Part shown: positions 4,261 to 61,128 of the stretch, one piece after another
Numbering within the stretch: the first letter of the stretch is position 1
Layout of the letters: each line of letters starts with the position of its first letter
Source: a virus
DNA: 64,000 bases
Strand: one strand, 5' to 3'
IMG/VR virus record: IMGVR_UViG_3300010354_000069
Location: 1-64,000 of that record
Program-made: the position numbers and the translations under genes
Notes under the pieces: model-generated
Database searches by the model: none
What the model saw: the letters and a program-made list of their open reading frames with translations, nothing else
Told to the model about the DNA's origin: nothing

Positions 4261-4266
4261 GCTTCT

Positions 4267-4785: not shown

Positions 4786-4786
4786 C

Positions 4787-5218: not shown

Positions 5219-5293
5219 CTGCCTCAAACTTGAAGCTCAACTAGAAGAAAGCCTGAGAGAGTGGACACGACTGCAGAGCTGCGAGGACGTGCT

Positions 5294-5756: not shown

Positions 5757-6113
5757 CTACTGCCCAGCAAATTGGACTACAAGGTCTACGTTTGCTGTAC
5801 CGGCAGCCGCTACGGTAATGTTGGTAGGTCGGCTATTCAAGTTGAGCAGCAGAAGGTCTTCCAAAGTCATGATGCTGCCATCATCAATCTGCACAGTAAA
5901 CGGGTTTGGTGTGTAAGGATCAGCCGATGCTGCAGTGCTAGTCATGAACATCATGAAAGAGCCAACAGCAAAAGCTTGAGTAAGATCCAGAACCTTAGGT
6001 GAGCCCGGTTGTAGAGCAATGTGCATTGTCACGTGGTGCGGGTACGACTTGGGCTTTTCATAAGCTTCACGCGCCCGGTCAAAGTGCAGCTGAACGCCCT
6101 GGAAGTGGAACAT
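5757..6113 (-). CDS. Hypothetical protein (probable virion-associated)
   Basis: Likely start at ATG 6113 (MFHFQG...) after GAGG. Last gene of the minus-strand PAAR module. Confidence 0.55.
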   Translation of the reverse strand: MFHFQGVQLHFDRAREAYEKPKSYPHHVTMHIALQPGSPKVLDLTQAFAVGSFMMFMTSTAASADPYTPNPFTVQIDDGSIMTLEDLLLLNLNSRPTNITVAAAGTANVDLVVQFAGQ

Positions 6114-40064: not shown

Positions 40065-40556
40065 ATGCAGTTTTACGTCAGCGCTTTAGGACCTATAGAC
40101 ACAGGCCGCCCGCTTCACGCCGACGCCGGCAAAACCTTCAACCACGTAGGCATTCCTATCTGGTTTACTAGGGGTAGTTTGCACCGTGCTGTACACGTTC
40201 TAAATGGACCCTACCACGAACCTACTGGACTTTTCGTGGTGCAACCTAACGAAGTGCTGGTGTACTTTGAGGTAAAGCAGCCCCCAGCAGGTTCTTTGCA
40301 AGAGCAGACCATGGGACTGCGCCCGGTTACCTACGCAATTCTTAGTGTCGACCGCAACTTCGTGCATAGCAACAGTTTGCTGTATCAATCAGTAGATCCT
40401 GATGCAGACTTTGAAAAAGACGACGATATCGCCGTCTGGTTTGGAATGACCTTTCCGGCAACTATAGTAGGTAGATTCAGAAAGCCAACGGATACTTTTC
40501 AGCCTCCTAAAGAAACTCGTGGCCACATGTTGAAGGACTCCAACCTCTACAACTAG
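40065..40556 (+). CDS. Hypothetical protein
   Basis: AAGGA RBS. Last plus-strand gene, convergent with the giant ORF. Confidence 0.55.
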   Translation: MQFYVSALGPIDTGRPLHADAGKTFNHVGIPIWFTRGSLHRAVHVLNGPYHEPTGLFVVQPNEVLVYFEVKQPPAGSLQEQTMGLRPVTYAILSVDRNFVHSNSLLYQSVDPDADFEKDDDIAVWFGMTFPATIVGRFRKPTDTFQPPKETRGHMLKDSNLYN

Positions 40557-43500
40557 TTGGCTCGCTTTCGAGCAGCACTAGGAATATCTCTACTACCGCT
40601 GCGACCCTGTCTGTGATAGTCACGGTCCAGCGTGTCATCCTTGCCCTTCTTGCCAGCATGCTCTTGATGGATGACCACCTTCTTGCCCTGTGGGTCAACC
40701 TCTACCTTAGAAGTACGGCGCTGAGAGTGGTCTTTAGTGCTACCCGTCGGCACATCCTTTGCCCCGCTCTTGACACCACCGTGATTAGCCTTGGTATCGA
40801 CAACAACAGTTGCATTCTTTGACTTGGCGGGGGCTTCTTTACCATAGAACACGTTTTGAATGAACTCATCAACGTTTTCAATAACGTCATCGAGCACGTT
40901 ACGTTCATACTTGTCGGATACCACCGCTTCGACTTCGATTGAACCGCTTGAAGAAACGGTACCAGGTAGCGCTTGTTTGCTTGTGCTTGAAACACGTGCA
41001 AGCTCTTTAGTGCTACGAACGCTTAGTTCAGCAGCGGATTTTCCAACACGATACTTGGCGTCAATATGAGCATCAACAGATTTTACAAGGTGCTCGTTAA
41101 TTTTTCCGTAAGCCCAAATATTTGCAAGAACAATACCAATACCTGCAAAGGTTCCTGCGATAGCTCCAGGAAGAGCACCAACACCCCCAGCTAGTGTACC
41201 GGCGGCAGCGCCTGTCAAAGCCGTCTTTACAACGAAACCAGCAGCGGCACTAGCCAAGCCAAGAATGCCTATAGTGCTAAGACCGGCCACACCGTGCCCC
41301 AAAGCACGCTCTCTAGCAACTCTGTCAGTACCCGCCTCCCTGTATTCAACAAAGGTCTTGGATGACTCTACGACCACCATCAAAGGCAACGCAGCTTTGC
41401 TAGCTACTGCGGCAAGTTTCGGTGCCCACGTTGTAGCACCAAATCGCTTTGTAACAAGAGGAACCATGCGTCCGTAGCCTTCAAGTGCTGCTTGTACAGC
41501 AAACAATCCAGTGCTTGCCTTAAAGAAGACTTCCTGCTCAAAAGGCATTTCGTACCCTTGTTTATGCAGCTTTGCCTTTTGGTCTTCAAAATCCATCCAA
41601 CTTTTTACAGACATGGCAAGCATGAATAGAGGATTGCCAAGCTGTTGGCTGAACTCATAACTCTTCATGATCGATGTGTTGGCTAGCCGTTGTTGGTAGA
41701 TATCTCTGCGGATTCGAGCCTCTGCCTGTTCTTGGCGCGCCATAGGACGCTCTCTGGAAGTCTTGTCCAACCTTGAACGAATCTCTTCCTTGCGCTCCAC
41801 TGTACGTTGAATTCGCTCTTCAGCCTCCTGCAACCGCTCAAGAGGTTTGCCGGCAGTACCCAAGCGTGCCCAAATATCTTGCTTCAATTGTTTTTGACGG
41901 TTTATTTCTTCCTCACGCTCAATCAGGGTTTGCAAAGGACGCTCACCCCGTGTTGCCTCCGTACGGCTACGAACTTCTTCGCGTCTAGCTTCTGCTACCG
42001 ACTCGACTGCTCTGCGCTGCTTACGGGCGGCAATGAGCTCGCGCTGCCTATTTGCCAGAGTTTCTTGGTCAAGGCTATTCAAGCTGCGAGGCGTGGGGTT
42101 CTTGCGGAAGTCCCTGACAGCCCTACCCAGAACTAAGCGGCTTTCTTCATCCGCGGGTACGAAAGTACGCTTGGTGTAGCTAAAAGCTTGTGGAGTCTTT
42201 ACTGGCTCGTCCGTCACGCTACGCTGAGCGCTCACAACGGGATTGATGCTTGAAGCAGCAATGTCTTTTGATAGACGTGCTACTACTGCAACAAGCGATC
42301 TACCAGCTTTCAAGTATCTGTGTACGGCTTTTTCAACCAACTCGTCTGGATTTACAACGATTAGCTGGTCTACGTTACGCTCAACAGCACGCCAGCCTCT
42401 ACCCAGTAACATAGAATAGCCGGCATAACCAAGACTGGCAATTGTGCGTGCAAACAATCTGTCAGTAAAGAGGTAAATGTCCCTAGCACCTGTAGATGCA
42501 GCCCTGTAAGCAGCTTCTCTAGCTACGATGTATGTCCTACCGTCACGTTCAATAGTGGTATTGCCAAGGTGCTTAAGAGCGTCACCGTTATCAAACATGC
42601 TAGGCTTGTTATACTTGTCGACAAGCAATTCAGCCGCTATGCCCGCAAATAGCTCTCTAATACCTGTGGACATGAGCTCATGAATAGTAAAAGAAGTAAT
42701 ACCTGGTTTTTCTGATCTACGTCGTACTTCCTCAAGAGTACGCTCTGCGTTAGAGCGCAGTTCTAGGTAGGTCTGCTCTGCAAGTTTTCCGTTAGGGTCT
42801 TGAACACCCATTTCCCTGTACATGGACTTGATGATTTCTCGCCACTCCTGCTCATAAACTTCAGGAGCTGCCCTGAAATCCATGATTCTTGCGCCTGGCT
42901 TAAAACCGAAAGTCTGAACGTAGTGTGCGCTGCTGTAGTGCCCCCAACCGCTAGGTTTAATTCCTCGAACACCAGAGTAATCTGTGGCATCGTTTCTGGA
43001 AGGTGTCACGTAGAACCCGGCCCCTTCGGCCCAAGTGCCAGATACGTCCAACTCTGGAATTCCGTAAGGACGATAGTCCTGACCGTGGTAGTAAGCCCTG
43101 CTTGTAAGCCTGTCGGATATAGCTTGCTTTTCCGCAGTAAAATCAACTACACCAGAGCGGGTTGTGTGTGCATCGCGCGCAAGTGTTGAAGTTTCTGGCG
43201 CCGCTGTACGAAGCTCCATGTCAAGTAGTTCGTGCGGTAGCAGATTTGAAGCACTTTCAGTCTTTGGCAAAGACCTCCACTCGTATTTGGCCCTCTGTTC
43301 AGCCGCTCGAGTATCTGCCCGCATTTTCAGCATCAGCCTTAGCATGCGAGCTTCTTTTTGAGCAAACCTGATGAGACTGCTGATAGCTCCAGGTTGACTG
43401 CTTGCTCTTTGCAACCGGTCTCTGTACGTCTGGTAAGCAAGACGGCCAAGAACCGGTGCGGTTGCAAGTAGACTAGTGGCCAGAGTAGCAAAGTGCTCGG

Positions 43501-46500
43501 GCGTAATCAGAGTGCCAAAACCACTGGAAGCTTCTGCGGGCATTGTAGCGGCTGCAACCAAACCCAAGCCAGTAAAAGCAATGGACATTAGTCGTCCGGA
43601 GCGCCCGCCAAGAATGCCTTTACGCTCTGCCGCTCGTTTAGCCAAACGGCTTACACGGTCTGCGGTACTAGCAGCAACGTGTGAGTAAGGCTCTATATTC
43701 CTTGAATACTCGGCGGGTATTACTTCTGGTAGGCTGGTCTCAGAAATATTGAGAACCTTCGCTATCTTAGTTTTATAGATGTTTATAAGCTCTACAGCTT
43801 TGTCCATCTCAACAGAATCTTGTTTAGGAGCAAATTCTTGAACTAACCGCTTGGTATAAAAGTCAAGTCGTAAATCCATATCTCTGGTAATGTTACCAGC
43901 TGCATGCTTGCGTAGAATAGCATTTTTAATAAGGTCAACGCGCCTGTCTGTAAAGTATATCTGTTCGTCAGTAAGTCCAGCTGCATCCCTGAGGAAGTTG
44001 TACATAGTACGCTGTTCTGGATAAGCAGAGAAAACACTAGTAGTAGAGTTTACGTTAATACGCAACCTGCGGATAAGCTCTGGCATTACATTTATTGCTC
44101 TAGTTTCTACAGCAGCTTCTTCAAGGGCTAGTTCAGGCGCCGTAGCGTAATGCCCTTTTATATCGTAATCAAAGCCGAATCTAGCTAGAGCGCGCCTACG
44201 CGGGCTGTACTCGTGATGCACTTCGTGAGAAAGGATATGAAGAGTCGTTAACAAGCGTTCCAAAGACTTTTCTCTATATTCAAATGAAGCTACGCCAAGT
44301 TTATTTCTACTCTGACGTGCGATATCTAGTAGATACGGAGTATACTTATTTCTAACATTGATGTAAGCCATCATACCGCGCGGAGTGTGCATACCATCCC
44401 AGCTAAAAGGCATATTGGTCACTCCAATATCATTCAGCAGAATAACAGGAAGGGGTAGGATTCCTCTTCTTTGTTCTCTAGGTAAAGTACTTCTAACAGC
44501 CTTTGCAGTTTCGTACAAAGCAAATTGCATAGCAGTAAGTTGTTTTGCAGTATCAACAAAGTGTCTTAGGCTTGCAACCGATCTTGCACTTATAGTTTTC
44601 AAAAAATCTATTGTTTGTCTAGGTTTCAACACAAGGCTCGCAGTAAGCGCAGTAGCGGTAGCCCCAAAAACACCAGCTGCAGCAAATTTCAGGTAAGGTA
44701 CTAAAGTGTTAATCAGACTAGGGTAATGCGTAGTAATTTTACTAAGGTCGGGCTCCACCACAGTTTCAATCCTGAAGTGGGTTGCCGCTTCTGCAGGCAT
44801 TCCAGCGGCTAGTGCAAGGCCTACACCAAGTAACCCTAGTGCCAAAGGCTTGGCACCACGCTTGAGGCTTTGACGAGCCTTCTCAAGAAGCTTTGGTTGT
44901 AGAGCTTTGAGTGTGCTGCGAACGTAAGTGAAACCTCTTGCTACACTGACAGAAGATTTGTCTATGGTAGTAGTAAACAAATGGTGCGGTTTACGAGCAG
45001 AAGCAATAATGTCAGAAGAAGCTCTGTACCTGAGTAGCTGTACTGTGTATTCACTTAAATTTGCTAAGTTCAAAGCCCCCAACCGCTTTATACGTTTACC
45101 TGGAACAACAGCATAAACAGTTGTTTCTCTCGCTTCTTTGGAGTCCATTAATACAAGCTGACCATTTTCGTTGAAAATGGTATTACGTACTCCCGCGTAT
45201 CCTTGGCTTACAATACTGTCTCTAAGAGCTGTATGAACTGCAACCTCAGAGTTGAAGTTTGGTGGTAGACCTTCAGCAGCAGTAAAACGAGATGTCATAA
45301 ACTCTACTGCGCTCTTATAAAAGTATTCTACATTGTGTTTGTTGTCGGGAGTATCAAGAGCGTTAAGCAGACGCAGGAGCTCCGCATTGAACTTACTGCT
45401 AGTTTTTTCACTATCATTTACGTGAAGCAGCATAGTCTCAAAAGTGTGCTGCAACATTGTGCGTACTTCAGTCTTGTACACTTCAGCAGGCTGAGCAAAG
45501 TCTATAAACTGTGCAGTAGGGTTTAGCCTTACTTTTTGAACGATACCAAACTGCTTTTTGGCCTTTGTTACAAGGGCTCGTACAGTCTTGCCTGCTGAGT
45601 TTACAGTAAGACCCGCGTAGTCAAGGGCTTGGCCAACCGTTTCAGCCATGTAGTAACCACGGCCGCCCCACCAAGAGCCGTGTAAAGAGGCTTCAGGAAT
45701 ACCAGAAGGTGCATGAGTTTGACCGTGGTAGTACGTACGGTTGGTAATCTGCCTTGAGATATCTTTCTTCAAAGTGGTGAAATCCAAAGCGGTGCGCGTA
45801 GGCTCGGCCTCGGAAGCGGGAACAACACTGGACAGAGGTTGATTCTTATTGTTACCCCCAAAAAGCTTCTTGACTCCTTCCCAGCCAAGAATTCCGGCTG
45901 CAGAGAAACCAAGCTGACTCATCAGCAAAGCGTTGTCTGCGAGCGATGTGACGTGATGCCCAAACGGTAGCGTAGCTGCTTCAGCGGGCATTCCAGCGGC
46001 TAGAGCCAGACCTGTTCCTACCAGCAGGCCGAAGATACCGGAAGTGCGCTGCCCCCGCTCCCGCCTAGCTTTCTCTAGCTCAGCATCAATAACCGTCACC
46101 ATAGAACTATCGTTTAAAATTTCGAAAGAAGGTAAGTCACGTCGTGCAATAGAGCTCAAAGACCTGTGTAGCCTATCAAGAGCTTTTAAACTTTGTTTAT
46201 AGCTGCCTACAGGACGTCTAATGCTAAATCTGCTGCTATAGGAAGAAGGTACAAACACGTTTACAGCGTAGTTATTGATAACCTTTCTTATTCTTGTAGC
46301 TTGGCTCCGGTTAAGGCGAAACTTCTCTGCAATTTTTTCACTTAGTAGTTTTACACGATCCTCTTCGACATACAAAGTATCGCTTGTAATATCTGTAAGT
46401 GAAAGCAAGGCCCTTGTAAACATTCTTTGAAACTTATAGGTAGCGACTAAAGGAGCGGTACTTACAGTATGTCCAGTTAGCCTTCCTACAAATTCCCTAA

Positions 46501-49500
46501 GATGCTCTACGCTACCAATCTCAACAGTAGCTTCTTCTAAGGCATATAGCATAAGCTTGTTTTGTTTACTACCGTAATAGTAAGCTTTTACTATACTTGG
46601 TGCGTGCACTAGAGCACCTAGTAAACCAGCACGCTTAATGGCAGACCTTACCTTTTTCATGTAATAGTCTTTAGCAACAGACGGATTATACTGAGTAGCT
46701 ATAGTATTGCTAGCGCTATGTCTCAACTCGTGCAGTAGAGTTGAATAGCTATCACTTTCAGAAGCGGATAAAACTTTAGGTTGCTTATTAAAAGATCTTT
46801 CTAAGTCTTTTATGGCTTTATGCGATAAAACTATAAATCCACGATCCCTGCGTGGGTATCTGGTGTAATAAGCACCAGAAGCGCTACCAAGCCTTGTATA
46901 ATGTAGCCTTTGCGCTTCTTCGGGCGTTAAAAGATATTGAGCACCGGATGTAGCAGCACCAGGAAACATTTGAGCAAGTGTAGTCTTAGCTTTTCTTAGT
47001 AAGTTCTGTCTGTCTATAAAGTTTGGATCACTAGAAAGCGCTATTAGTTCTTTGTTATACGCATTTTCTAGAGCTTGCGGGCCAGAAAGCTTTCTGTTAG
47101 CAACAACCCTTAGTCTACGGTCTACTAAAAACAGTAAACCTGCACCTAGCGTTCCAGCCACCATCGTAGCAAAAACGGACAAACCACCCCCAGAAGCTGC
47201 GTGGTGTGCAATCCGCGTAGCGGCTTCTGCAGGTGCGCCCAGCAGTGCGATGCTACCCAGCGTAATTGCGGGAAGAATACTGCGCTTTGCAAGCTTTAAA
47301 GCAGTGCTCTTGACCTTGTAGTACAGATGACTGAGCTTTGGCAGAATACCTGGCGGGAGCGGTAGCTTTCCGGTTTTCTTGCCATAAACATTGGGATTGA
47401 GTCCACCGGTAAAAGAGGGCGGCGTCAAGTTTCCGGTGCTTGGGTTTAGCGGACTTGTACGTGAAGAAGTAAGCTCGCCCGTACCTCGAGAACCCGCTTG
47501 GCTACCACCCAATTCGCCAGAGTCACCAGTACCGCCGCTCAGTCCATCAGAGCCGGTACCTCCCTGCCCAAAAGGCAGAGACTGCTGACCGTTGCGCCCG
47601 GAGGGTGCGGTACCTCTAGGGCTTGGAGTATTGACCAAGAAAAAGATATTTTCCAAAGTACGGTTTACTAGGTCTTGTGTAGTTTTCTCAACGTCGATGT
47701 TGACTTCTTGGCTGGAACCCTTACGGCCAATTGTGACTCGGTCTCCAATCTTGTTAGTTTTTGCCAAGAGGCCACGACCGCGTCTACGGCCAGGTTTAAC
47801 GTTACGCGGAGCTTGTACAGGACCCCCTGAACCAAACTTCACGATATCCGTAAACATCTGTACGAGCTCTTCAGTCACCTGATTGACAATGGCCGTGCGG
47901 TCAACACCTTCCTTCAGGCCCGTACCTTCAATGAGGGCTTCTGCCAGGAACTGCAGTTGGTCGGTAGCACTGCCTTGGTGAGAAGCCAAACGAGCGAGTA
48001 AATTTGCCCTACGCTCTCCGTAATTGATACGCTTCCTGCCTGTGTCAGGGTCTTGGTCAAAACGACGATTGATGTGTTCAGCAACCTTTGCCAAGTGTTG
48101 CATTGCAGCAACACCTTGCTGCAGCCTACCTTCAGCCAAACCTGTGCGATCTTCACCAAAACCAAACGGCAGGCGTAAGAAATTCAACTGGGAAGCGCCA
48201 CGCATGACCCTTGCGCGCATGTTAAGTGCAGCACTGCGAAGTATAGATGCCTTTACAAGAGTTTCTACAGATGGAGCTGCGGATGTAAAAGTTTTACCGT
48301 CTTTTGTATGCCTATGCTTGGCAAAATCAAGAATTCCGCCGCTTTCCTTATCAAGTAGAAAAGTACTAGAAAGTAGATGCTCCAGCGCCTGTATAACGGA
48401 GTTGTTGATCTTGTTTAGGTCAGTGCCAATGTCTTTTGTACGCTCCTCCTCAATAAGACTGATCTGTTCAGTAACTTCGTGTAGACGAGCAGTATCCTCT
48501 GGGGTAAAGTTCTCAGTGTCTTTTTCAAGCTTACGCTCAAGCTTTTTCCTGATAAGCTCAAGTGTGCGTAGTATTTCTTTTCTTCCCGTAGTTTCGTCAT
48601 AGGTACGAATATTATCGTAGGCTTCTATGAATTCAGGAGAAACAAGAACGGCAGTAGTGGGATTTTTAGCTCCTGTCGCAACTACACCAACAACAGATAG
48701 CGGTGAAATAGTTCTATCCGCCGTTTCCGCAGCAAGAGTATGCCCGGCCAAATGTAATGAAACAGACCCTGCTGAATCTTCAAGAAGTATCCTTGAAGCT
48801 ACTGAATCAGGCCCAGCTGCAAGCTTTTCAAGAGTGCTGTTAAAACTTTTGACAAGACTATCAACACCTTTAACTGCATCGTGATCTTCAGGCTTGGGTA
48901 CATCAAGCACTGAAGAGGGCTTTCTCACTTTTTTCCAGATACGCCAAACCATAAAGGCTGTAAATGCACCGCTAATCAATCCAGAAATTGTACCGTAGGT
49001 AGTATCGTTATCATCATCTTCATCGTACCTATGCTTGCCGTCCTCATTGGCGTTCTTGTTTATATCTTGATAGTTACGCTTTTCATTACGCTCACCGGTG
49101 TCAGTGTACGCGTTTGGATTCAAAGTAATCCTTAATGGTTCAGTAGAGCCAGGTAGAAGCGCACCACGCCTTGTAAACTCTTGGTTGTACAGGGTCTCGG
49201 CAGACTTTGCTATGTTTTCTGCAAAACCAAAGGATTTCCACATTTTGGTGTAGGCGCCGGGCAAGCTATGCGCAGCATCCTTGTTCTTGCTGAGATACTC
49301 TTCAATTTGAGCCGCAGTAGGAACTTGAGTACTGCCCGTAGGCGTGGCAGTAGGCGTGTGCATAGGGTCAAGTACAGTACCTCCAGCACGTACTTCATAG
49401 TGTACGTGCGGGCCAGTCGAATGTCCGGTGCTACCTTGAATACCGATGCGCTGCCCGCGCACCAGAATGTCTCCTACGCTTACGCCGACTTCGTTGGCCG

Positions 49501-55500: not shown

Positions 55501-58153
55501 CTGCCATACCAGCGCCAAAACCCAGCAGCGACGCAATCTTCGCGGAAGTGCCCTGATGCTGGAAGACTTGCATTGGGTAGCCAATACCCAAAGAGAAGTA
55601 TCCTAGAGCTGAGCTTGTGACTTCACCCAGGCTCTGAGGCAAGAGATAGCTAGGAGTGAGATAGGAGACCTCTCTTTTGTAAGTCTTTCCTTCATTGATT
55701 ACACGCTCTGCTGCAATCTGGTCACTAAGAAGAAGAGGCTTACTAGCTAGCATGTCGCCAATAAAACCACTTATGACCGTAGTAGCCGCAAAAGCTCGTA
55801 CAGCATTGCGGATGCCAACACGCTCGGGACTTACAGTACTGTAGCCGTAAGCACTTGCCCTAGCATTTGCAAAATACTGGTTGGCCTTTCTGAAGGAGTT
55901 AGCAGCCTGACGAAACCTGCCAGAAACCAAATGTTTTACAGCAAGAGTATTCTCGACTTGTCCTGCTCTGACGTACACATCATCGTGTACTGTAATGTCT
56001 TCCACAAACAGATTCATTAGCGGGATCTTGGAGCTTAGCTTCGAGTACGCTTGTGTTACTTTACTCAAGCTCATTCGGGCTGTAAGTTCTACGGCATCCG
56101 GTTTAGCCATTCGCGCCGCTCTGAGGGAAGGCTCGTCAAGAGCTTCCATTACAGCGTTGTAGTATGGTCTAGCCTCCTTGAGCCCGGTAAGGCTTTCGAC
56201 CATAGGATAAACCGTGTGCTGGAAAGTAAACCTGGCGACGGACATGGAAAGCTGTTTGAGCTTGCCAAAAGCCGACATTGTCCCGCTTACACCGCTCGCA
56301 TACAGCTTGTATCCCACACTGTTTGAAGTAGCGGCATTTGCCATTACCTTTGCCTGATACTGACGCGCGCTTGAGACAATGTAGTCTTCAGCACTTGCAC
56401 TAATCGAGTGCAGAAAGTGCGTCGAGTAGTACAGCATAAGAAACGAGCCCAAATTGCTGCCGGCATCAACCAAGTAACGGGCCATCTCTGCGTAGGGCTC
56501 GGTTTTCATGCTGGGAGCTTGAGGGCTGTAACCACCTGAATAGAGGAATGATTCCAACCCGGTCATGTAGCGGTGGTGGTCTAAGTAACGACCGGCATTC
56601 ACGATGGCGCTACCAAGAAGCCCGCGATTACCGCGCTGCTCGACCATATAGCTGGCCTCGGCGCCGTAAACTTTACCCACGTAAGCTTTGAGCATGTAGC
56701 CCGCTGTAGGAGCTTGCATCAGGTAGTCAAGAGCCCGCACCTCAAGAGGCATGGTGCTGTAGTCCATGCGTTCACCTGTAGAACGCTCATAGTTGCTTGC
56801 GTACAAGTGCGACAGAATGCCACCGCGGTCGCGCTTAGGTGAGTAAGTAACTCGCCCGCCATACCCAATGACGTCGTAATCAGTGTTACGCCGAGTCTTG
56901 ACCATGTCCCCGTAAAACTGACTGGTCGCCATGTACATGGCAAAGTGCATGAAATTTGCGTCGTACAGAACACGTGGGTCAATCGTGTATTGCCAGCGCT
57001 GACCGGCGCCCGGTTTGGGCATATCCGCTGCTCTGGGCATCAGCGCGTCAACCATGAAGTCGTAACGCCTAGAACTGGGTGGCCTGACGCCGCGCACCGC
57101 TTTGGACCGATCAGGTCTTGCTGCGAACTTCTTGAACTCGCCGTCTTTAGCAATTAGCTCGTGCACGTACTCGGCGTAGCCAGCATCCTCAAGCTTGGTT
57201 GAAATCATCGTGGAGTAGCCCCTAGGGTTACCCATACTCATGCTTTTGGAAGCTCGGGCATCGCCAAGAAAACTGACGGCGTTCTTGCCGTGACCGACAG
57301 CCATCTGATTACGGTGAGAAGGGTTTCTGGTAATTGCCACTTCCAACGAGGGATACTTTTTGGAAGCTTCTGTAAGCTGTTCTATGACGCGGGCTTGGGT
57401 ATTGATGTCGCTGTCGGCTGTACCACCTATGAGTACGTGCGTGCGAGCACCCAAACGGCTTCTGTTGATGATCCTGTTGACGACACCCTCGTCGCTCAGT
57501 GTCGTGTAGGTAAGCGAGATGTCCTCAGTAGTTTCCAGTTGACGGTAGATCTCGTTGAAGTAAGTTGAGCGGTCACCCGCAGAGATGACCTTGAAGTGCT
57601 TGGTAGAAACCAGCGGCAGAGCCCTTTGCTCGCTTAGAGCTCTCTCATTCGCATAACCCGGAATTCCTGCACGAGTAGCAAGAAATTTCCACTCGCGGAT
57701 CATTTCTTTGTTGTCCGTCAAGTAGTACTCGTTCTGCTGCAGTTGTCTGCCCGTTCCAAATAACTTGGATCCTTTTAGGCGGCTGCTGGCTTTTTCACCC
57801 ATGCCGCTGGCTGTCATGTTAGCCGTGCCGCCGTAAACCCACTCGTGCCCCTGCTGGTCTACAAGGATACCTTGCTTGTAGTGGGTAAAGTCCTCGTTGG
57901 CTTTCATGTCCAACTCGATAACTTGCCCAGGGTACCTGCGTACGGCCTCTGCAGTATTTGCAGAGTTGCTGGAACGACCCCTAGGAGCTACGTATAGTTT
58001 GCGCTCACCAGGTCCGCTGAGAAAGCTCTGCAACGTCTTGGAATCAGGATCTACGTCAAACGAAGTTCGTACGAACGAACGAGCAGTAGCAGCAAGCCTG
58101 CTGTGGCTTTGCTGGTTTTCCTGCCCGTAGTGCAGTAACGAGCTGCGATCCAA
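40553..58153 (-). CDS. Giant (5,866 aa) multidomain virion/ejection protein: PLD-like, tape-measure-like, lytic transglycosylase, M23 peptidase, 2x zincin, 2x ART-like
   Basis: HYK....GGTANMT (PLD); IMQAETGG..S.KNARGLMQ...AYNAG (SLT, ~50050-50450); HQGVDI..YGHL..GSTGHSTGPHVHYE (M23, ~49360-49730); HELRH and HEVHH; two YYHGQ..G.G(Y/F)Y domains. AAGGA RBS before TTG. Confidence 0.88.
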   Translation of the reverse strand: MDRSSLLHYGQENQQSHSRLAATARSFVRTSFDVDPDSKTLQSFLSGPGERKLYVAPRGRSSNSANTAEAVRRYPGQVIELDMKANEDFTHYKQGILVDQQGHEWVYGGTANMTASGMGEKASSRLKGSKLFGTGRQLQQNEYYLTDNKEMIREWKFLATRAGIPGYANERALSEQRALPLVSTKHFKVISAGDRSTYFNEIYRQLETTEDISLTYTTLSDEGVVNRIINRSRLGARTHVLIGGTADSDINTQARVIEQLTEASKKYPSLEVAITRNPSHRNQMAVGHGKNAVSFLGDARASKSMSMGNPRGYSTMISTKLEDAGYAEYVHELIAKDGEFKKFAARPDRSKAVRGVRPPSSRRYDFMVDALMPRAADMPKPGAGQRWQYTIDPRVLYDANFMHFAMYMATSQFYGDMVKTRRNTDYDVIGYGGRVTYSPKRDRGGILSHLYASNYERSTGERMDYSTMPLEVRALDYLMQAPTAGYMLKAYVGKVYGAEASYMVEQRGNRGLLGSAIVNAGRYLDHHRYMTGLESFLYSGGYSPQAPSMKTEPYAEMARYLVDAGSNLGSFLMLYYSTHFLHSISASAEDYIVSSARQYQAKVMANAATSNSVGYKLYASGVSGTMSAFGKLKQLSMSVARFTFQHTVYPMVESLTGLKEARPYYNAVMEALDEPSLRAARMAKPDAVELTARMSLSKVTQAYSKLSSKIPLMNLFVEDITVHDDVYVRAGQVENTLAVKHLVSGRFRQAANSFRKANQYFANARASAYGYSTVSPERVGIRNAVRAFAATTVISGFIGDMLASKPLLLSDQIAAERVINEGKTYKREVSYLTPSYLLPQSLGEVTSSALGYFSLGIGYPMQVFQHQGTSAKIASLLGFGAGMAVTRGRGFGTFLAGIVGGSVAGGLTELLSGRGFTSFRQANKMFNVPRNVVVTKADGTQEEVGALTFMYSQGFRQFNSVRGALKSVTEFIANTPTALYRNTVKMIQADRDNFSWKVVTQQQAAAMTASDRMRQLDNEGFRGQITGDPGAVQGTIQKTLDIFRNFSVTAYKSEINQMSIDGLRIGWMGGPALFLSAATQGGRTSYAISFITPLPLQGSGTMSMPFYRMEKRGYKQLEYWLRGVKESNNYFDRLLYDAVSNKENSASSFASKIALNIMSLGYKPSTLVEAVAQLNVGAAAIAGPTLTALAVGTTFALANLAAKKHYQARELLLTGVKPPASSLFERVTGYLKYGQDTRVSLDPLTNIGNILTSETTSGASGISARRVVGTLLRGPGVAMRALMRVVTLPVTAPVGVLTGTASKVLGGSFSSGFMAPVRAGQSLATIGLSLMVFEAGRIVYNLHQRNYEGTPGSYIQSQINRYKIDYNDPNTPLGAVTSTFNKFMESGFRVLVNANSGERKISDVQPIIISRPTDSFAIEMNPIVGKFPVTPKGLAQRINWSIRKVLSAFSSESVIQGPEIVAMQHGYAAAQQTERDEDTTGFTRIKGRFSMGFGNLFTVASNKIAAVRPQNPQNKVLGGTSLAMATYGDYTMLTGFAPARKPAFMGRMFSSESPVYNLSPGLKLALRNRQALARTALVAWPAEMNDYLGGEKAYVGGYSRLSKQAYYTHYAMGRYDTQNNLVQGVRPLIVNPLRTAPGMKPYDSYDVAALAKEYAGYANRFYEKAKEVELFKLPDGIDQEFLATLEQSPTYRGIMAYIEGHKAAQQAAGMPITEMEDDSDTFDTLPFGMNKKILRPLSRNSSPEEFLLNFSNSEVNSNQQTRIGAIWLGFALGTAAMFAGHGIAAARTLLTISRDPALRAAYNVTKNLKADDPLKGFDIRRLMRAVEVTSAGKVLDPLTLEYNPSDASVLRMPRPGGGFSMLGAANGEPFGEGILPRGSVISGRARALGYQQIARAVIETYGDIKALAETKDVTRTLGTIRRLEIILESFAGHGPGSPAPPPGWSPGKRYLTAMNELQGIRTRLTAGGDFAKEINLFERTVFGVFRDFDDVMGLKPVDMPGFLNRAGLRASTFVGSIRKTFTFWKLRSVGAHVPEPQLGGTPPPPPPAVGIHEVRAGSIGTADPSHHTASTAQEERIASKNIQSATRITRFSSFMTGLGYGFRATALLASLALLSKSLLDTTESYENSVTFGLYGIGLGAFALGGISGIMKIADKAIVRPMLLSGAYGAVSNIAIAADPTISREARQTFREEGASELWKTFVLGGTLLATKKTSELAAAGAIALGAAKGGRVAGFAGLLVGGLVGWASFSLSSAVGKSQYEEALTKEKEGKELNWGDRVNKFFIGGLIDSIGWVQEHADKVDALKQLNTGVSAIFRTFNVGAAGYLNQSADYLLSMTLNKEYKKVSDKPLKFAAGLLNYWADTFVNTQIKAGLLESGDAGETSFSARHALWRSYSPIFYGVASERAWMSTAAKLEIAEQVRFTKRGIGASLLTVVAPEVLQSFSNTGLMSSSNDNLLNMSFASMYMARPRTGGGNVSAKRAFKFAPVPSVDQIIMGELHRRALMYETAVLGGANAMYNYMFTGGWSGFEVRSRTSAAERAEGAVPGRRTILSTLAEVTGGPVRTGSAGPVPEKYSAFITEASKRSGEAESFIRSIMQAETGGDYNERMVSPKNARGLMQIVPEAHDPTGKLNLFDPRTSIVTGANILAQFRRELVKKLGRAPTDLEVAAAYNAGVTGFMRSLRPGGKLPLETQRYIKQVEYYKYINEHFGSLKGIENTTDLAAYISKNLKMPKAEARDVAQRVRTQMARGGQYLPYDDPETYNQVSHFLGYAPTRKQRAELLHTAILRSTPSLTGFPVATERGISYNVTSPYLRDRGTHLHQGVDIQFYDTKTGSTNVPVVAFVGGRVIEKGVKGGYGNVVIVRTELKVKGKPVDILYGHLADDAANEVGVSVGDILVRGQRIGIQGSTGHSTGPHVHYEVRAGGTVLDPMHTPTATPTGSTQVPTAAQIEEYLSKNKDAAHSLPGAYTKMWKSFGFAENIAKSAETLYNQEFTRRGALLPGSTEPLRITLNPNAYTDTGERNEKRNYQDINKNANEDGKHRYDEDDDNDTTYGTISGLISGAFTAFMVWRIWKKVRKPSSVLDVPKPEDHDAVKGVDSLVKSFNSTLEKLAAGPDSVASRILLEDSAGSVSLHLAGHTLAAETADRTISPLSVVGVVATGAKNPTTAVLVSPEFIEAYDNIRTYDETTGRKEILRTLELIRKKLERKLEKDTENFTPEDTARLHEVTEQISLIEEERTKDIGTDLNKINNSVIQALEHLLSSTFLLDKESGGILDFAKHRHTKDGKTFTSAAPSVETLVKASILRSAALNMRARVMRGASQLNFLRLPFGFGEDRTGLAEGRLQQGVAAMQHLAKVAEHINRRFDQDPDTGRKRINYGERRANLLARLASHQGSATDQLQFLAEALIEGTGLKEGVDRTAIVNQVTEELVQMFTDIVKFGSGGPVQAPRNVKPGRRRGRGLLAKTNKIGDRVTIGRKGSSQEVNIDVEKTTQDLVNRTLENIFFLVNTPSPRGTAPSGRNGQQSLPFGQGGTGSDGLSGGTGDSGELGGSQAGSRGTGELTSSRTSPLNPSTGNLTPPSFTGGLNPNVYGKKTGKLPLPPGILPKLSHLYYKVKSTALKLAKRSILPAITLGSIALLGAPAEAATRIAHHAASGGGLSVFATMVAGTLGAGLLFLVDRRLRVVANRKLSGPQALENAYNKELIALSSDPNFIDRQNLLRKAKTTLAQMFPGAATSGAQYLLTPEEAQRLHYTRLGSASGAYYTRYPRRDRGFIVLSHKAIKDLERSFNKQPKVLSASESDSYSTLLHELRHSASNTIATQYNPSVAKDYYMKKVRSAIKRAGLLGALVHAPSIVKAYYYGSKQNKLMLYALEEATVEIGSVEHLREFVGRLTGHTVSTAPLVATYKFQRMFTRALLSLTDITSDTLYVEEDRVKLLSEKIAEKFRLNRSQATRIRKVINNYAVNVFVPSSYSSRFSIRRPVGSYKQSLKALDRLHRSLSSIARRDLPSFEILNDSSMVTVIDAELEKARRERGQRTSGIFGLLVGTGLALAAGMPAEAATLPFGHHVTSLADNALLMSQLGFSAAGILGWEGVKKLFGGNNKNQPLSSVVPASEAEPTRTALDFTTLKKDISRQITNRTYYHGQTHAPSGIPEASLHGSWWGGRGYYMAETVGQALDYAGLTVNSAGKTVRALVTKAKKQFGIVQKVRLNPTAQFIDFAQPAEVYKTEVRTMLQHTFETMLLHVNDSEKTSSKFNAELLRLLNALDTPDNKHNVEYFYKSAVEFMTSRFTAAEGLPPNFNSEVAVHTALRDSIVSQGYAGVRNTIFNENGQLVLMDSKEARETTVYAVVPGKRIKRLGALNLANLSEYTVQLLRYRASSDIIASARKPHHLFTTTIDKSSVSVARGFTYVRSTLKALQPKLLEKARQSLKRGAKPLALGLLGVGLALAAGMPAEAATHFRIETVVEPDLSKITTHYPSLINTLVPYLKFAAAGVFGATATALTASLVLKPRQTIDFLKTISARSVASLRHFVDTAKQLTAMQFALYETAKAVRSTLPREQRRGILPLPVILLNDIGVTNMPFSWDGMHTPRGMMAYINVRNKYTPYLLDIARQSRNKLGVASFEYREKSLERLLTTLHILSHEVHHEYSPRRRALARFGFDYDIKGHYATAPELALEEAAVETRAINVMPELIRRLRINVNSTTSVFSAYPEQRTMYNFLRDAAGLTDEQIYFTDRRVDLIKNAILRKHAAGNITRDMDLRLDFYTKRLVQEFAPKQDSVEMDKAVELINIYKTKIAKVLNISETSLPEVIPAEYSRNIEPYSHVAASTADRVSRLAKRAAERKGILGGRSGRLMSIAFTGLGLVAAATMPAEASSGFGTLITPEHFATLATSLLATAPVLGRLAYQTYRDRLQRASSQPGAISSLIRFAQKEARMLRLMLKMRADTRAAEQRAKYEWRSLPKTESASNLLPHELLDMELRTAAPETSTLARDAHTTRSGVVDFTAEKQAISDRLTSRAYYHGQDYRPYGIPELDVSGTWAEGAGFYVTPSRNDATDYSGVRGIKPSGWGHYSSAHYVQTFGFKPGARIMDFRAAPEVYEQEWREIIKSMYREMGVQDPNGKLAEQTYLELRSNAERTLEEVRRRSEKPGITSFTIHELMSTGIRELFAGIAAELLVDKYNKPSMFDNGDALKHLGNTTIERDGRTYIVAREAAYRAASTGARDIYLFTDRLFARTIASLGYAGYSMLLGRGWRAVERNVDQLIVVNPDELVEKAVHRYLKAGRSLVAVVARLSKDIAASSINPVVSAQRSVTDEPVKTPQAFSYTKRTFVPADEESRLVLGRAVRDFRKNPTPRSLNSLDQETLANRQRELIAARKQRRAVESVAEARREEVRSRTEATRGERPLQTLIEREEEINRQKQLKQDIWARLGTAGKPLERLQEAEERIQRTVERKEEIRSRLDKTSRERPMARQEQAEARIRRDIYQQRLANTSIMKSYEFSQQLGNPLFMLAMSVKSWMDFEDQKAKLHKQGYEMPFEQEVFFKASTGLFAVQAALEGYGRMVPLVTKRFGATTWAPKLAAVASKAALPLMVVVESSKTFVEYREAGTDRVARERALGHGVAGLSTIGILGLASAAAGFVVKTALTGAAAGTLAGGVGALPGAIAGTFAGIGIVLANIWAYGKINEHLVKSVDAHIDAKYRVGKSAAELSVRSTKELARVSSTSKQALPGTVSSSGSIEVEAVVSDKYERNVLDDVIENVDEFIQNVFYGKEAPAKSKNATVVVDTKANHGGVKSGAKDVPTGSTKDHSQRRTSKVEVDPQGKKVVIHQEHAGKKGKDDTLDRDYHRQGRSGSRDIPSAARKRAN
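43523..47290 (-). repeat. Four internal signal-peptide-like repeats (~47216-47290, 45971-46065, 44780-44863, 43523-43603)
   Basis: Protein repeats LLGAPAEAAT, LALAAGMPAEAAT (twice) and LVAAATMPAEASS. The 17-bp GGCATTCCAGCGGCTAG is identical in copies 2 and 3. Confidence 0.85.
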
Positions 58154-60133
58154 CTACCAGTCCTTCTGCGTAATCCTTGTATTACGCATTGAACCAGTGT
58201 CGGTGTTGCTACTTCTGCGCGGATCAACCAGTTTTGCACGATCTGCTAGCTGACGCTCCTCAGCAAAGAGATCGTTGATAGCGCGTGCGGTGTGAATCTG
58301 TCCGGAAGTCCTGATATTGTTGGAGCCGGTTTCAAAATAGCGGAACCTACGCTCATCCTGAGAAATTCTGTAGACAACGCAAGCCAAGCAGTCTGACAGA
58401 TCTTTCGAGCCCTTTGGTTTGGGGTGGTCGATACGACGCCCATTCATCAATTTGATTTCAGACAGTTCCTTGTGGAGCTTGGCTGCAGCAGGACTTTGGT
58501 CAGGTGGTGGAATGCGTACGCGGTCCTGATCAATCCACTCGCGCAGTACTTGGTATATCTTGCGCTGCTCGGTCTGGCTAAAGCTGGACTTCCACAGCTC
58601 GGTCGAAATGCCGGCAGAGTAGATACGCTGAATCATCATTGCACTATTCCAATGGTCGAAAGTCAGCTTCTTCAGGTGGATGGACTTGGATAACTTGATA
58701 ATCTCGTCGCAGACGTTTTCGTAGTCTACCAGGTAGATGTCGCCTCGACCCTTATCCACCGGACGCCACTCCAGCACAGCATTTACCTGTACGATCACGT
58801 TGCCCGTCAGCGGGTCTACGACAGGATGTGCCGAGAGAAAACCAAAGCTGTCGTGCTTGAGACCAGGATCGCAGTGACCAAAGCTGAACATCGCACCTTT
58901 AACGACTTCCTGTGGAGCAATGACTTCAATAGACGAAAACTTTCGCGGGCCGTCTGGTCCTTGCTGTACCGAGATCTTTGGAATGTAGTCGACCTGCAAC
59001 GGGTACTTCGAAGCGCGAGCCAGTGCGTGCTTGTGGAAGAAATTCTCTTCCGACCCAGGTCGTACGCCCGCGTAGTCTCGCATTGCCTCAACACCGCGAG
59101 TCAGGTATTCGGCCTTGATGCTGGGATGTTCCTCCTTGAGCAGAGCAAACTCCGGGTTCATATCCCAAGTTGCCAACCTGAATGCCAGAATGTGACTAGC
59201 TTCACCCTCAGCGTTGATGAACAGTCTATCCGTCAGGTCGCCCTCGCACCAAGCAGAGCTGATGACAATCTTTTTTGAGCCGAAGCGGGACAGCGTCAGG
59301 GTACCCTTGCCGACGTTGGCATAGAGATCGACGCCAGATTGACCAGAGCCGCCTTCAATACCAAAGCGGTTAGCCTCGTCCATCGCAAAGATCATCAACG
59401 TACGACCGACCAATCCCGAGCTGTTGCTATGACCGGCCCAGATCGTGATGTTCTTGGAAGGGTACTGAATATCCAGCGTGTTGATGATCAGCTTGCCTTG
59501 CTGCCGCAAGCCCTGAAAGTAAGGTGCCTGCTCAAGTCGGCCCTTGATGTTGGCAAACAGAGTATCCTTGGACTGCACTTCAGTTGTAGCAAGAACCAGC
59601 AAGTGAATGGGTGATCCGGCCATCAGACCAAATTCCTTGGCGGGATCCGGGTGCTGAATCAACTTGAAGTACTCGTAAGCACAGACAACGGAGATGATTG
59701 CGGTCTTCGAGCTTCTCATCCCCGCCTCAAGGCTGAGTTCTTGGTAGTGCTGGCCCTCAACCCAAGTGGTCTTGCCCTCGATGGCCCAGTTTTGCAGAAT
59801 CTCGCGCTCGTCCCAGTAGTCAGTAGCCTTCTTGCCGTACTTGGCGAGCTTGCCCTGAACCTCTTCCGGCCGTCCTTTGAACAGCGAACCCCACGTACCA
59901 CGCTCCAGCGGTAGTTGGTAGAGTGCTTTAAGAATGGCTCGCTGGCTAGGCCACAGTTCAATCTCAAGGATATCCGTCGCAAACTCGACAATATCCATCT
60001 CGAGCTTGGCCCGCTGCATCCCTTCGGAGATCAGCTCCGAGAGCAGCAGGTCGCTGGCGTTTACTGGTTTGCGGTTGCCTGGTGGCACTTGATTAATCCG
60101 TAAGAACGCCTCTGTACTGGAACTTGGCAGCAC
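58154..60133 (-). CDS. terL: Terminase large subunit
   Basis: LWPSQ, Walker A AGMRSSKT, Walker B FAMDE, ISS coupling motif, RNase H-like HCDPG, TFDHWNS and DHPK.GSKDLSD. Exact start uncertain. Confidence 0.9.
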   Translation of the reverse strand: MLPSSSTEAFLRINQVPPGNRKPVNASDLLLSELISEGMQRAKLEMDIVEFATDILEIELWPSQRAILKALYQLPLERGTWGSLFKGRPEEVQGKLAKYGKKATDYWDEREILQNWAIEGKTTWVEGQHYQELSLEAGMRSSKTAIISVVCAYEYFKLIQHPDPAKEFGLMAGSPIHLLVLATTEVQSKDTLFANIKGRLEQAPYFQGLRQQGKLIINTLDIQYPSKNITIWAGHSNSSGLVGRTLMIFAMDEANRFGIEGGSGQSGVDLYANVGKGTLTLSRFGSKKIVISSAWCEGDLTDRLFINAEGEASHILAFRLATWDMNPEFALLKEEHPSIKAEYLTRGVEAMRDYAGVRPGSEENFFHKHALARASKYPLQVDYIPKISVQQGPDGPRKFSSIEVIAPQEVVKGAMFSFGHCDPGLKHDSFGFLSAHPVVDPLTGNVIVQVNAVLEWRPVDKGRGDIYLVDYENVCDEIIKLSKSIHLKKLTFDHWNSAMMIQRIYSAGISTELWKSSFSQTEQRKIYQVLREWIDQDRVRIPPPDQSPAAAKLHKELSEIKLMNGRRIDHPKPKGSKDLSDCLACVVYRISQDERRFRYFETGSNNIRTSGQIHTARAINDLFAEERQLADRAKLVDPRRSSNTDTGSMRNTRITQKDW

Positions 60134-60665
60134 CAGACTTCAGGGCGTTGTACTTGACTTCAAGGAGCGCCTTGAATTCCTTCCAGTAGATCTTGATGTC
60201 CTGCTTTTCACTGCGGCCAACCTCAATGTCTACGTGGTAGTGGTCGGTAACCGCTTCAAGCGGCAGCTTGTGCCAAGCAACAAACTCGGCAACAAACTGG
60301 GCAGCAACTTCCAACTGGGCCTTTGTAATAGGTGCCTCGCCAAGATTGCTGGGCACGGCATTACGCATGCCGCAGAGACTTATCCCTACAGTGCCCGTGT
60401 TGGCTTTGAACGCATGACGGCCCTTCTCGGTAAGCTTCAGCAGTTTGACTACGTGCGCTTTGTCCTTGAGTTTATCGTAGGGAACGCAGTAGTGATAAAC
60501 GTCGTGTACCATACGGTAGGAACCACCGGTCCAGTGCATGATGATACGCTTTATCTTGCCTAGCTTCATGCTGCGCTGATCATTTTCTACCTCAAGCACA
60601 ACGTTCAGGCCATCTACATCGTGGTTGCCGTCACTGTGCTCGTCGGAAAGGTCAATGTAACCCAT
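60093..60665 (-). CDS. N-acetylmuramoyl-L-alanine amidase (Amidase_2) endolysin
   Basis: IIMHWT, YHY, HA..ANTG.VGISLC and TDH. Start ATG 60665 after GGAG. Confidence 0.82.
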   Translation of the reverse strand: MGYIDLSDEHSDGNHDVDGLNVVLEVENDQRSMKLGKIKRIIMHWTGGSYRMVHDVYHYCVPYDKLKDKAHVVKLLKLTEKGRHAFKANTGTVGISLCGMRNAVPSNLGEAPITKAQLEVAAQFVAEFVAWHKLPLEAVTDHYHVDIEVGRSEKQDIKIYWKEFKALLEVKYNALKSGAAKFQYRGVLTD

Positions 60666-60666
60666 T

Positions 60667-61128
60667 TCAGATGTCTCCCGTAACTGCAGGATGCAGTACA
60701 ACTACCAAGTAGAGTGTTGGAAGTAGTGTATCAGAGCTGTACCCGATATAAAAGAAGTCGCCGTGCTTGAGCTGCTGTAGCCACAAATTATCGTAGATGT
60801 GCGCGCCAAAGGTCATAGGGCGCAGATGCGGTACTGTGAGGTCGTCGTCAGGGTTGTCCACAAAATCTACCGAGACCGTGTAAACGGGCGTGAAGGTCTT
60901 GTCGTAGACCGTGTAGCCTTCAATATCAACGTTGTTCAGTCTTACGTAAAAATTAGCGGGTTCTACTATAACCACACTGTGCGGGTGCGTGATCATCTTT
61001 TCAATCAGTTCAGGCTCAAGTGCAGCAAGACTCCTGATGCCCTGTGGAGCTTTGCGTATGATTGGATTCAGGACGTCTAGAAGCTCAGGATCGTGTAGGT
61101 ATACTTGAGTAATACCATTAATTTTCAT
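60667..61128 (-). CDS. Hypothetical protein
   Basis: 153-aa ORF coupled to its neighbours. Confidence 0.55.
   Translation of the reverse strand: MKINGITQVYLHDPELLDVLNPIIRKAPQGIRSLAALEPELIEKMITHPHSVVIVEPANFYVRLNNVDIEGYTVYDKTFTPVYTVSVDFVDNPDDDLTVPHLRPMTFGAHIYDNLWLQQLKHGDFFYIGYSSDTLLPTLYLVVVLHPAVTGDI

Follow-up and report, generated by a model that had tools for sequence, protein, structure and literature searches.

Why should one short hydrophobic block be repeated four times inside a single, very long phage protein, each time directly ahead of what looks like an enzyme domain? The protein in question is encoded by a giant open reading frame (ORF) of an uncultured phage, in the IMG/VR record IMGVR_UViG_3300010354_000069. 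This record is linear and 72,243 bp long, with a CheckV completeness of about 35%. Positions 1-64,000 of it were analyzed and are referred to below as the window; coordinates are window positions. Judged from its sequence, the giant ORF probably encodes a virion-borne polyvalent multi-effector protein. It would carry two cell wall hydrolases, of the SLT and M23 types, followed by a pair of a zincin-like and an ADP-ribosyltransferase (ART)-like region that is repeated twice, with one block in front of each of these four regions (Table 1). The reading preferred here is that the blocks are hairpins which enter the membrane of the host, whose type I signal peptidase then cuts them after the sequence Ala-Glu-Ala. 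It is a tentative reading, put at somewhat below an even chance.

Anatomy of the Four Blocks

The tetrapeptide Pro-Ala-Glu-Ala (PAEA) is found four times in the giant protein, while 0.158 occurrences would be expected from its composition (Poisson probability of four or more, ~2e-5). When all six frames of the 72,243-bp record are considered, PAEA is present in long ORFs at these four places only, and one extra match lies in a frame of 17 codons. A first-pass annotation of this DNA had stated that the same block recurs four times in the 5,866-aa ORF, and this recurrence is real. The peptides it quoted, and the N-termini it expected after cleavage (ATRIAH, ATLPFG, ATHFRI, and SSGFGT), match the translation exactly. 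The n-region of block 1 begins at 47326, slightly beyond the end of the region it delimited, 42300-47290.

All four blocks are built in the same way. Five or six Lys/Arg are found among the 15 residues that precede a Gly/Ala/Leu-rich hydrophobic stretch (h-stretch) of 16, 19, 17, and 17 aa in blocks 1-4, respectively; this is the long end of the range for cleavable signals. The c-region then has Pro at position -4, Ala at -3, Glu at -2, Ala at -1, and Ala or Ser at +1, with no Pro at +1 in any block, and the two residues following PAEA are Ala-Thr or Ser-Ser. By every rule-based criterion that could be computed, each block resembles a Sec-type signal peptide with a signal peptidase I site, which agrees with the n-, h-, and c-regions ending in A-X-A that had been proposed for them. 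After a loop of 13, 14, 32, and 10 aa in blocks 1-4, the chain becomes hydrophobic again over 19-22 aa, and three to five Lys/Arg are found in the 15 residues after this second stretch in every block. The helices consist of 52% Gly/Ala/Ser/Thr, compared with 34% for the whole protein.

The hairpin with a second hydrophobic helix, which had been assigned to all four blocks, is clear in two of them. With a hydrophobicity scale of hand-entered values, as applies also to the segment counts and the topology given below, the 19-residue sums of the second helix are 0.3 and 2.1 in blocks 1 and 3, while blocks 2 and 4, with 6.7 and 5.1, are weak; basic residues follow in all four.

Other kinds of signal were also considered. 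A Tat or a lipoprotein signal was rejected, as the block sequences contain neither a twin-arginine consensus nor a Cys after the site. Internal translation starts before the blocks were likewise rejected: no consistent start codon is found, and the single TTG before block 4 makes no pattern. When the signal peptides of the other genes in the record were considered as a yardstick, none was convincing. Within the loops of all four blocks there is a His, then an aromatic residue or another His, then x-[ST] (HHAAS, HHVTS, HYPS, and HFAT).

Conservation of the Blocks

The blocks are the best-conserved parts of the array, the domains between them displaying 24-34% identity. Between blocks 2 and 3, 16 of the 22 residues around the motif are identical, the codons differ at 10 of these 16, and the two blocks are flanked by different kinds of domain. 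Since the codons differ at identical residues, the likeness of the blocks stems from selection on the peptide and not from recent copying of DNA, and the same 10 codons led to the rejection of recent gene conversion as its cause. PAEA has been retained in all four blocks with varied codons. Judged by these comparisons, the blocks are under constraint at the protein level. Blocks 2 and 3 also have in common the sequence L-E-K-A-R about 25 residues upstream (at about 45990-46040 and 44800-44850, (-) strand).

At the threshold used, the giant protein contains 24 hydrophobic segments. A crude filter that asks for at least two Lys/Arg upstream and an AxA at the end of the segment is passed by six of them, and among these six the AxA lies beyond the hydrophobic core only in the four blocks, while it is inside the core in the other two. 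The same filter applied to three comparison proteins passed 1/19, 1/31, and 0/3 segments, none of them convincing.

Contigs at least 99% identical to the stretch were found in other public runs, which are aquatic or freshwater metagenomes from other studies. They cover block 1 (runs X3 and X5, identical there) and block 3 (run X4) with the motif unchanged, and the sequence is therefore not peculiar to one assembly. Some parts of the stretch have no contig over them in runs X2-X5, which is uninformative. No RNA data set was among the listed sequencing runs that hold the stretch. Three differences were seen in these contigs, A>G at 44577 (X3 and X4) and GA>TC at 46824-46825 (X3), at a depth of about 3, where errors are possible; the first of these is the sole difference in the run X4 contig that covers block 3. 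By codon arithmetic they correspond to Val to Ala at aa 4526 and Ser to Asp/Glu at aa 3777, respectively, and both residues lie within zincin-like regions, outside the hairpins.

It might be imagined that the blocks are relics, i.e., signal peptides of formerly separate genes for exported or membrane proteins that became fused and now serve as linkers only. There is one block ahead of each domain, and polyvalent proteins, the class of multi-enzyme proteins discussed below, are described as growing by domain addition (passages of PMC5512222). Relics would be expected to decay, yet it is the domains, and not the blocks, that have diverged to 24-34% identity; a consistent start codon is lacking before the blocks, and their mutual likeness points to one duplicated origin and not to four fusions. 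Such an origin is thus very improbable.

The Likeness to PsbY and the Searches for Relatives

An exhaustive phmmer search of 1.84 billion representative proteins with aa 3600-4799, a segment spanning three blocks and as many domains, returned a single match, P0003 (E 8e-4, 44% identity over 55 aa, in three stretches). P0003 is a three-unit algal PsbY polyprotein (Pfam PF06298, E 2.3e-19, three stretches). Its unit comprises basic residues, a Gly/Ala/Leu helix, the sequence APAEAAT, a short loop, and a second helix. The seven hairpins, four from the phage and three from PsbY, align with PAEA[AS][ST] in register. PF06298 is absent from the Pfam matches of the giant protein at E <= 0.1, and the likeness is best read, from the sequences compared, as convergence on the same device and not as ancestry.

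PsbY is a textbook example of a polyprotein with "dual signal peptides," and it is cut after AxA by the thylakoid processing peptidase, which is a type I signal peptidase; a 1999 paper by Thompson, Robinson and Mant reportedly deals with this polyprotein. PsbY is an instance where nature uses the same architecture for processing of a polyprotein by signal peptidase, in a membrane system of cyanobacterial descent. Insertion of the PsbY loop is described in passages of PMC8790069 as driven by its two helices, the signal peptide and the transmembrane (TM) helix, and M13 procoat is named there as the bacterial counterpart of this type of insertion.

Homologous giant proteins in which the AxA hairpins might be conserved were not found in any collection searched. 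Neither tblastn nor megablast identified a homologue of the array in the phage collection, and a word-indexed protein search with aa 3600-5330 and aa 1-3600 among proteins of 3,226-10,266 aa returned the self-match only. Searches of viral contigs for related loci, using the array, the terminase, the middle part of the giant protein, and an alignment (A1), gave no relative of the array, and the corresponding searches of metagenome contigs, and of genome contigs with alignment A1 and a second alignment (A2), gave no relative either. The back-translated motif had two matches in viral contigs, both due to chance and with no preceding hydrophobic stretch. In metagenome contigs, 0 of 40 matches had a basic and a hydrophobic stretch in the preceding 40 residues, and no relatives were found.

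Proposed Membrane Insertion and Cleavage

The loops contain 1/0, 0/1, 2/3, and 0/0 Lys/Arg versus Asp/Glu in blocks 1-4, respectively. With zero to two Lys/Arg in the loops and three to six in the flanks, all four blocks fit the positive-inside rule for a hairpin with both its N- and C-terminus inside (N-in/C-in). A coherent topology is predicted for the protein as a whole: the hydrophobic helix beginning at aa 3052, with its N-terminus outside, would place SLT and M23 on the outside near their substrate and everything after aa 3070 on the inside. It is from this inner side that the four PAEA hairpins, and one more near the C-terminus, would be inserted.

The proposed mechanism follows this topology. 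The first helix of each block, with its basic n-region, Gly/Ala-rich h-region, and P-A-E-A c-region, would act like a signal peptide, and after the short loop the second helix would return the chain to the cytoplasmic side. The hairpins would in this way enter the cytoplasmic membrane of the host, or the thylakoid membrane if the host is a cyanobacterium, with both flanks inside. The A-E-A site would then be on the outer face, where the host type I signal peptidase would cut. The array would be split into units, and each would be tethered to the inner membrane face by one helix at its start and another at its end. If the hairpins take on this topology, cutting would very likely follow, the site being canonical.

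The time of cutting may be considered separately. Cutting after injection into a new cell, which the first-pass annotation had proposed, is doubtful. The same degree of doubt attaches to the full course of events, where the injected C-terminal half reaches the cytoplasm, the four hairpins insert from the inside, and the host signal peptidase frees membrane-tethered zincin-like and ART-like enzymes. Cutting during synthesis in the producing cell is more doubtful still, and this version must explain what membrane-tethered effectors would do late in infection, and whether they are packaged. One may speculate that the weak hydrophobicity of the helices helps the chain to stay out of the membrane until delivery.

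Several points weigh against cleavage by the host signal peptidase. The comparisons are confined to four paralogous copies within a single protein of a single uncultured phage, with no homologues. The PsbY match, at E 8e-4, is borderline and involves sequences of biased composition; it indicates likeness and not ancestry. The second helices of blocks 2 and 4 are weakly hydrophobic, as mentioned above, and the loop of block 1 lacks acidic residues and has an Arg at +3, while the loop of PsbY is acidic. Functional signal peptides should insert and be cut in the producing cell before packaging, and cutting after injection therefore needs an unexplained escape; the location in the virion is itself deduced from domains and gene position. 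Finally, the conservation of the blocks exceeds what signal peptidase I needs, as signal peptides normally drift freely, and this excess suggests that something more, or something else, constrains them, e.g., packing between helices, a specific protease, or a chaperone.

In a rival reading the hairpins are never cut. They would then be membrane modules of an ejected, envelope-spanning protein, anchoring its enzymes at the inner membrane or packing into a pore or channel, and PAEA would be a helix-ending turn on the outer face. The protein is indeed rich in Gly/Ala hydrophobic segments (24), including a C-terminal hairpin without AxA, and the giant proteins encoded at the same position in the Microcystis phage Ma-LMM01 and the Microcoleus phage My-WqHQDG hold 19 and 31 such segments. 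The first helices display spacings of the G-x-x-x-G type, which are linked to helix packing, and the 16 of 22 residues kept between blocks 2 and 3, being beyond the need of signal peptidase, would suit helix-helix contacts. PHROG matches of the M23 and C-terminal regions also include tape-measure families. A plain anchor or pore helix, however, needs no P-A-E-A-[AS]-[ST], and this sequence has been kept in four of four blocks with varied codons. When exposed on the outside, an h-stretch of 16-19 aa followed by Pro(-4)-Ala(-3)-x-Ala(-1) is a substrate of signal peptidase I, and the comparison giants have no such c-region. Uncut hairpins are considered somewhat unlikely. Even uncut, the blocks would be an unusual membrane module, strongly conserved and part of a multi-enzyme protein that is injected.

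The Regions Between the Blocks

The domains had been given the order zincin, ART, zincin, ART, and this order is found at the motif level only: HELRH, YYHGQ, HEVHH, and YYHGQ follow one another at distances of 167, 85, 190, and 149 aa, respectively, after their own PAEA. In both ART-like regions G-[YF]-Y is found about 22 residues after YYHGQ. The two ART-like regions are 34% identical over 133 aa (E 2e-20) and the two zincin-like regions 24% identical over 142 aa (E 5e-4), and on these alignments the regions between the blocks are diverged, old paralogues.

The zincin and ART assignments, which are based on motifs and weak leads, are probable but not established. The zincins of polyvalent proteins are characterized by HExxH and a downstream Glu (passages of PMC5512222), and the zincin-like regions show the same pattern (HExxH and ALEEAxVE). 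In the language-model Atlas, the clusters nearest to ART-like region 1 carry Pfam ART-PolyVal on 22-35% of their members (score 0.91). ART-like region 2 can be aligned without gaps, including the His and Tyr motifs, to the ART-PolyVal domain of the virion RNA polymerase (vRNAP) of Roseovarius Plymouth podovirus 1, with 12 of 45 residues identical and a weak E-value of 0.042. The spacing of the H and Y motifs is equal in the two, and hhalign gave E 0.0055 with a probability of 6.6% for the same pair.

The Pfam ART-PolyVal model PF18760 had no match at E <= 10, nor any in the six frames of the record, and Pfam at E <= 10 returned nothing relevant for the four core regions. A PDB profile search produced chance matches at best, e.g., an antibody light chain at E 0.013. 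When a profile of the two ART-like regions was run against collection proteins of 165-545 aa, 0 of 8,000 scored candidates passed. AlphaFold2 models were unusable, the mean pLDDT being 33.5 for hairpin 2 with ART-like region 1 (two-row alignment) and 38.7 for hairpin 1 with zincin-like region 1.

The presence of the zincin-like regions raises the question of whether the phage itself could supply a protease that cuts at PAEA, either by autoprocessing through an embedded zincin or through a prohead maturation protease acting after Glu (PAE|A), the hydrophobic stretch then serving another purpose. Interspersed zincin-like metallopeptidases have been proposed to process polyvalent proteins (passages of PMC5512222), and the array contains two HExxH regions with a conserved ALEEAxVE. 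Signal peptidase I would also account less well than a sequence-specific protease for the exact retention of four to six residues. Cutting after Glu is a known property of the prohead proteases of T4-like and phiKZ-like phages; their consensus, however, has a small or aliphatic residue at P3 and not Pro. No other long ORF of the 72-kb record has PAEA, which is a weak test as the head genes are not identified and the record is about 35% complete. The n-region, the h-region, and the second helix at every site are left unexplained by a phage protease, and in an inserted hairpin, to judge from its charges, the membrane would separate the site from the zincin domain. The zincin fold is moreover putative, and cutting by a phage-encoded protease is regarded as distinctly unlikely.

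Known Systems Compared with the Giant Protein

Polyvalent proteins are huge multi-enzyme polypeptides of phages and conjugative elements (Iyer, Burroughs, Anand, de Souza, and Aravind, 2017; PMC5512222). According to passages of that paper, the zincin-like metallopeptidase is their commonest domain, often present in several interspersed copies, and H-Y-D ART and lysozyme/transglycosylase domains are frequent. The genes are placed among late or virion genes, and their products are predicted to enter the cell along with the DNA and to undergo proteolytic processing. The first-pass annotation knew of no such effector polyprotein being described for tailed phages. As a statement on the literature this is incorrect, since polyvalent proteins that combine zincin, ART, and lysozyme/transglycosylase domains, and their processing, have been on record since 2017 (passages of PMC5512222). 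What was already known is thus multi-effector polyvalent proteins with predicted proteolytic processing, while the new element is the punctuation by signal peptide and TM helix in the form of procoat/PsbY-like hairpins. In the main text of the 2017 paper "transmembrane" and "signal peptide" both occur 0 times, although its supplements may list transmembrane segments.

The giant protein resembles the polyvalent proteins in combining several enzyme domains (SLT, M23, two HExxH, and two YYHGQ regions) and in being encoded directly downstream of the terminase large subunit on the same strand. It differs in that its ART-like and zincin-like regions do not reach the Pfam models, and the prototype, the vRNAP of Roseovarius Plymouth podovirus 1, has three hydrophobic segments of which none is signal-peptide-like. 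T4 Alt is a known case of a packaged and injected ART, but it is of the R-S-E type and a separate protein (passages of PMC5512222).

The closest architectural parallels to the blocks come from PsbY and M13. The repeated unit of basic residues, Gly/Ala/Leu signal helix, PAEAAT, short loop, and second TM helix is shared with PsbY, while the PsbY units are small photosystem II subunits and not carriers of enzyme domains of 300 aa, and the acidity of the PsbY loops is lacking in the loop of block 1. M13 procoat, which has 73 residues and is cut by leader peptidase, likewise consists of a signal peptide, a short loop, and a TM helix, with the N-in/C-in topology that the charges of the blocks imply. 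It is, however, one N-terminal unit made in the producing cell, while the phage protein has four internal units in 5,866 aa. Polyproteins cut by the host signal peptidase are textbook knowledge for flaviviruses, pestiviruses, hepaciviruses, and bunyaviruses. These differ in being eukaryotic RNA viruses cut co-translationally by the signal peptidase of the endoplasmic reticulum. Cleavage by the host enzyme after internal signal-like helices of viral polyproteins is described in abstracts such as those of PMC8002126 and PMC7926653. The literature search linked no tailed-phage virion or ejection protein to signal peptidase; only polyproteins of eukaryotic viruses and M13 turned up.

Wall hydrolases are also found in tape-measure and internal virion proteins, and SLT and M23 similarly lie inside a long virion-type protein, while the giant gene adjoins the terminase and not tail chaperone or baseplate genes. 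Ma-LMM01 gp120 and the giant protein of My-WqHQDG are similar with respect to their position after the terminase, great length, and many Gly/Ala-rich hydrophobic segments, but they are devoid of PAEA or AxA hairpins, HExxH, and YYHGQ.

Polyvalent proteins are thought to be cut after delivery, but the mechanism of cutting has been shown for few, and the sole proposal involves their own zincin domains. If cleavage by the host signal peptidase is true, it would be a second mechanism, borrowed from the host, and the first host-signal-peptidase-processed polyprotein in a tailed phage. It would extend to the tailed phages a strategy of eukaryotic RNA viruses and of one chloroplast polyprotein. The effectors would be fixed at the membrane and point to where their targets lie, which in a cyanobacterial host may include the thylakoid surface. 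Each block would in addition be a short, portable cassette.

The Giant Gene and Its Genomic Neighborhood

The giant ORF has a TTG start codon. In the gene call of the protein collection the same gene encodes 5,784 aa, i.e., 82 residues fewer, and the start is ambiguous (57908-58153 (-)), as no gap separates the TTG of the longest ORF from the stop codon of the terminase gene. The SLT and M23 domains, and a gene position beside the terminase, lead us to infer that the protein is located in the virion; the gene is probably a late gene whose product travels in the virion.

Table 1. Features of the giant ORF and its surroundings, in window coordinates.
Feature	Residues	Position	Strand	Remarks
Giant ORF	1-5866	40553..58153	(-)	5,866 aa; candidate virion-borne polyvalent protein
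SLT lytic transglycosylase domain	2578-2676	50126..50422	(-)	Pfam PF01464, E 2e-12; PHROG matches to virion/tail lysins
Peptidase M23 domain	2820-2930	49364..49696	(-)	Pfam PF01551, E 3.7e-17; PHROG and NCBIfam matches
Hydrophobic helix	3052-3070	48944..49000	(-)	Five K/R downstream; predicted N-out/C-in
Block 1	3610-3693	47075..47326	(-)	n-region, 16-aa h-stretch, PAEA from aa 3641 (47233-47222), 13-aa loop, strong second helix, RRLR; putative cut aa 3644/3645 (47222/47221)
Zincin-like region 1	3694-4021	46091..47074	(-)	HELRH aa 3808; ALEEAxVE downstream; Atlas lead; no Pfam/PHROG match
Block 2	4022-4107	45833..46090	(-)	n-region, 19-aa h-stretch, PAEA from aa 4056 (45988-45977), 14-aa loop, weak second helix, KK; putative cut aa 4059/4060
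ART-like region 1	4108-4420	44894..45832	(-)	YYHGQ from aa 4141, then G-Y-Y; Atlas lead ART-PolyVal 0.91; no Pfam match
Block 3	4421-4525	44579..44893	(-)	n-region, 17-aa h-stretch, PAEA from aa 4453 (44797-44786), 32-aa loop, second helix, KPR; putative cut aa 4456/4457
Zincin-like region 2	4526-4839	43637..44578	(-)	HEVHH aa 4643; ALEEAAVE downstream
Block 4	4840-4921	43391..43636	(-)	n-region, 17-aa h-stretch, PAEA from aa 4872 (43540-43529), 10-aa loop, weak second helix, RDR; putative cut aa 4875/4876
ART-like region 2	4922-5330	42164..43390	(-)	YYHGQ from aa 5021, then G-F-Y
C-terminal Gly-rich helical hairpin	5624-5682	41108..41284	(-)	Without AxA; Pfam DUF6861 (aa ~5633-5674), E 1.6e-6
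Terminase large subunit gene		58154..60133	(-)	Directly upstream of the giant ORF, same strand; tblastn to Ma-LMM01; PHROG terminase match

No Pfam domain was found in aa 3600-5400 of the giant protein, and PHROGs and NCBIfam were concordant, NCBIfam giving noise only. Tape-measure families are among the PHROG matches of the M23 region and the C-terminal region, and such matches are limited to the M23 domain and one Gly-rich stretch of the protein. That the gene encodes a tail tape measure protein was rejected, as it follows the terminase gene and does not lie between tail chaperone and baseplate genes, and as there is no full-length family match.

Immediately N-terminal of block 1 a low-complexity stretch rich in Gly, Ser, Thr, and Pro is found (aa ~3520-3610, ~47330-47600 (-)), which may be a flexible linker from the wall-hydrolase half to the effector array. 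Between ART-like region 2 and the C-terminal Gly-rich hairpin lies an Arg/Glu/Gln-rich stretch with repeated phrases (aa ~5330-5560, ~41470-42160 (-)), probably a coiled coil judging from its composition.

The terminase displays 33% identity to that of Ma-LMM01 over 87% of the query (tblastn, E 7e-70), which therefore suggests a freshwater cyanophage, and 31% identity to that of My-WqHQDG. The best matches of the DNA polymerase are to Microcoleus and Pseudanabaena phages, at 27%. On these sequence comparisons the phage is probably a freshwater one with a cyanobacterium as host. A terminase gene followed by a very long ORF encoding Gly/Ala-rich hydrophobic stretches is an order common to Ma-LMM01 (gp118, gp119, and gp120) and My-WqHQDG. 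Ma-LMM01 gp120 (2,898 aa) and the My-WqHQDG giant protein (4,151 aa) are 26-37% identical in four stretches, while no similarity of the giant protein studied here to either of them was detected by blastp or phmmer --max. In the passages found of the MaMV-DH01 paper the giant ORF is not discussed.

Candidate lysis genes are found elsewhere: one encodes an Amidase_2 protein (60093-60701 (-), Pfam E 9e-10) and one is a weak holin-like ORF (L002, 7872-8285 (-), PHROG E 2e-4). As these are separate genes, lysis is probably not the task of SLT and M23 in the giant protein. The G+C content is 0.437 at positions 1-4000 of the window, compared with 0.49-0.54 elsewhere in it.

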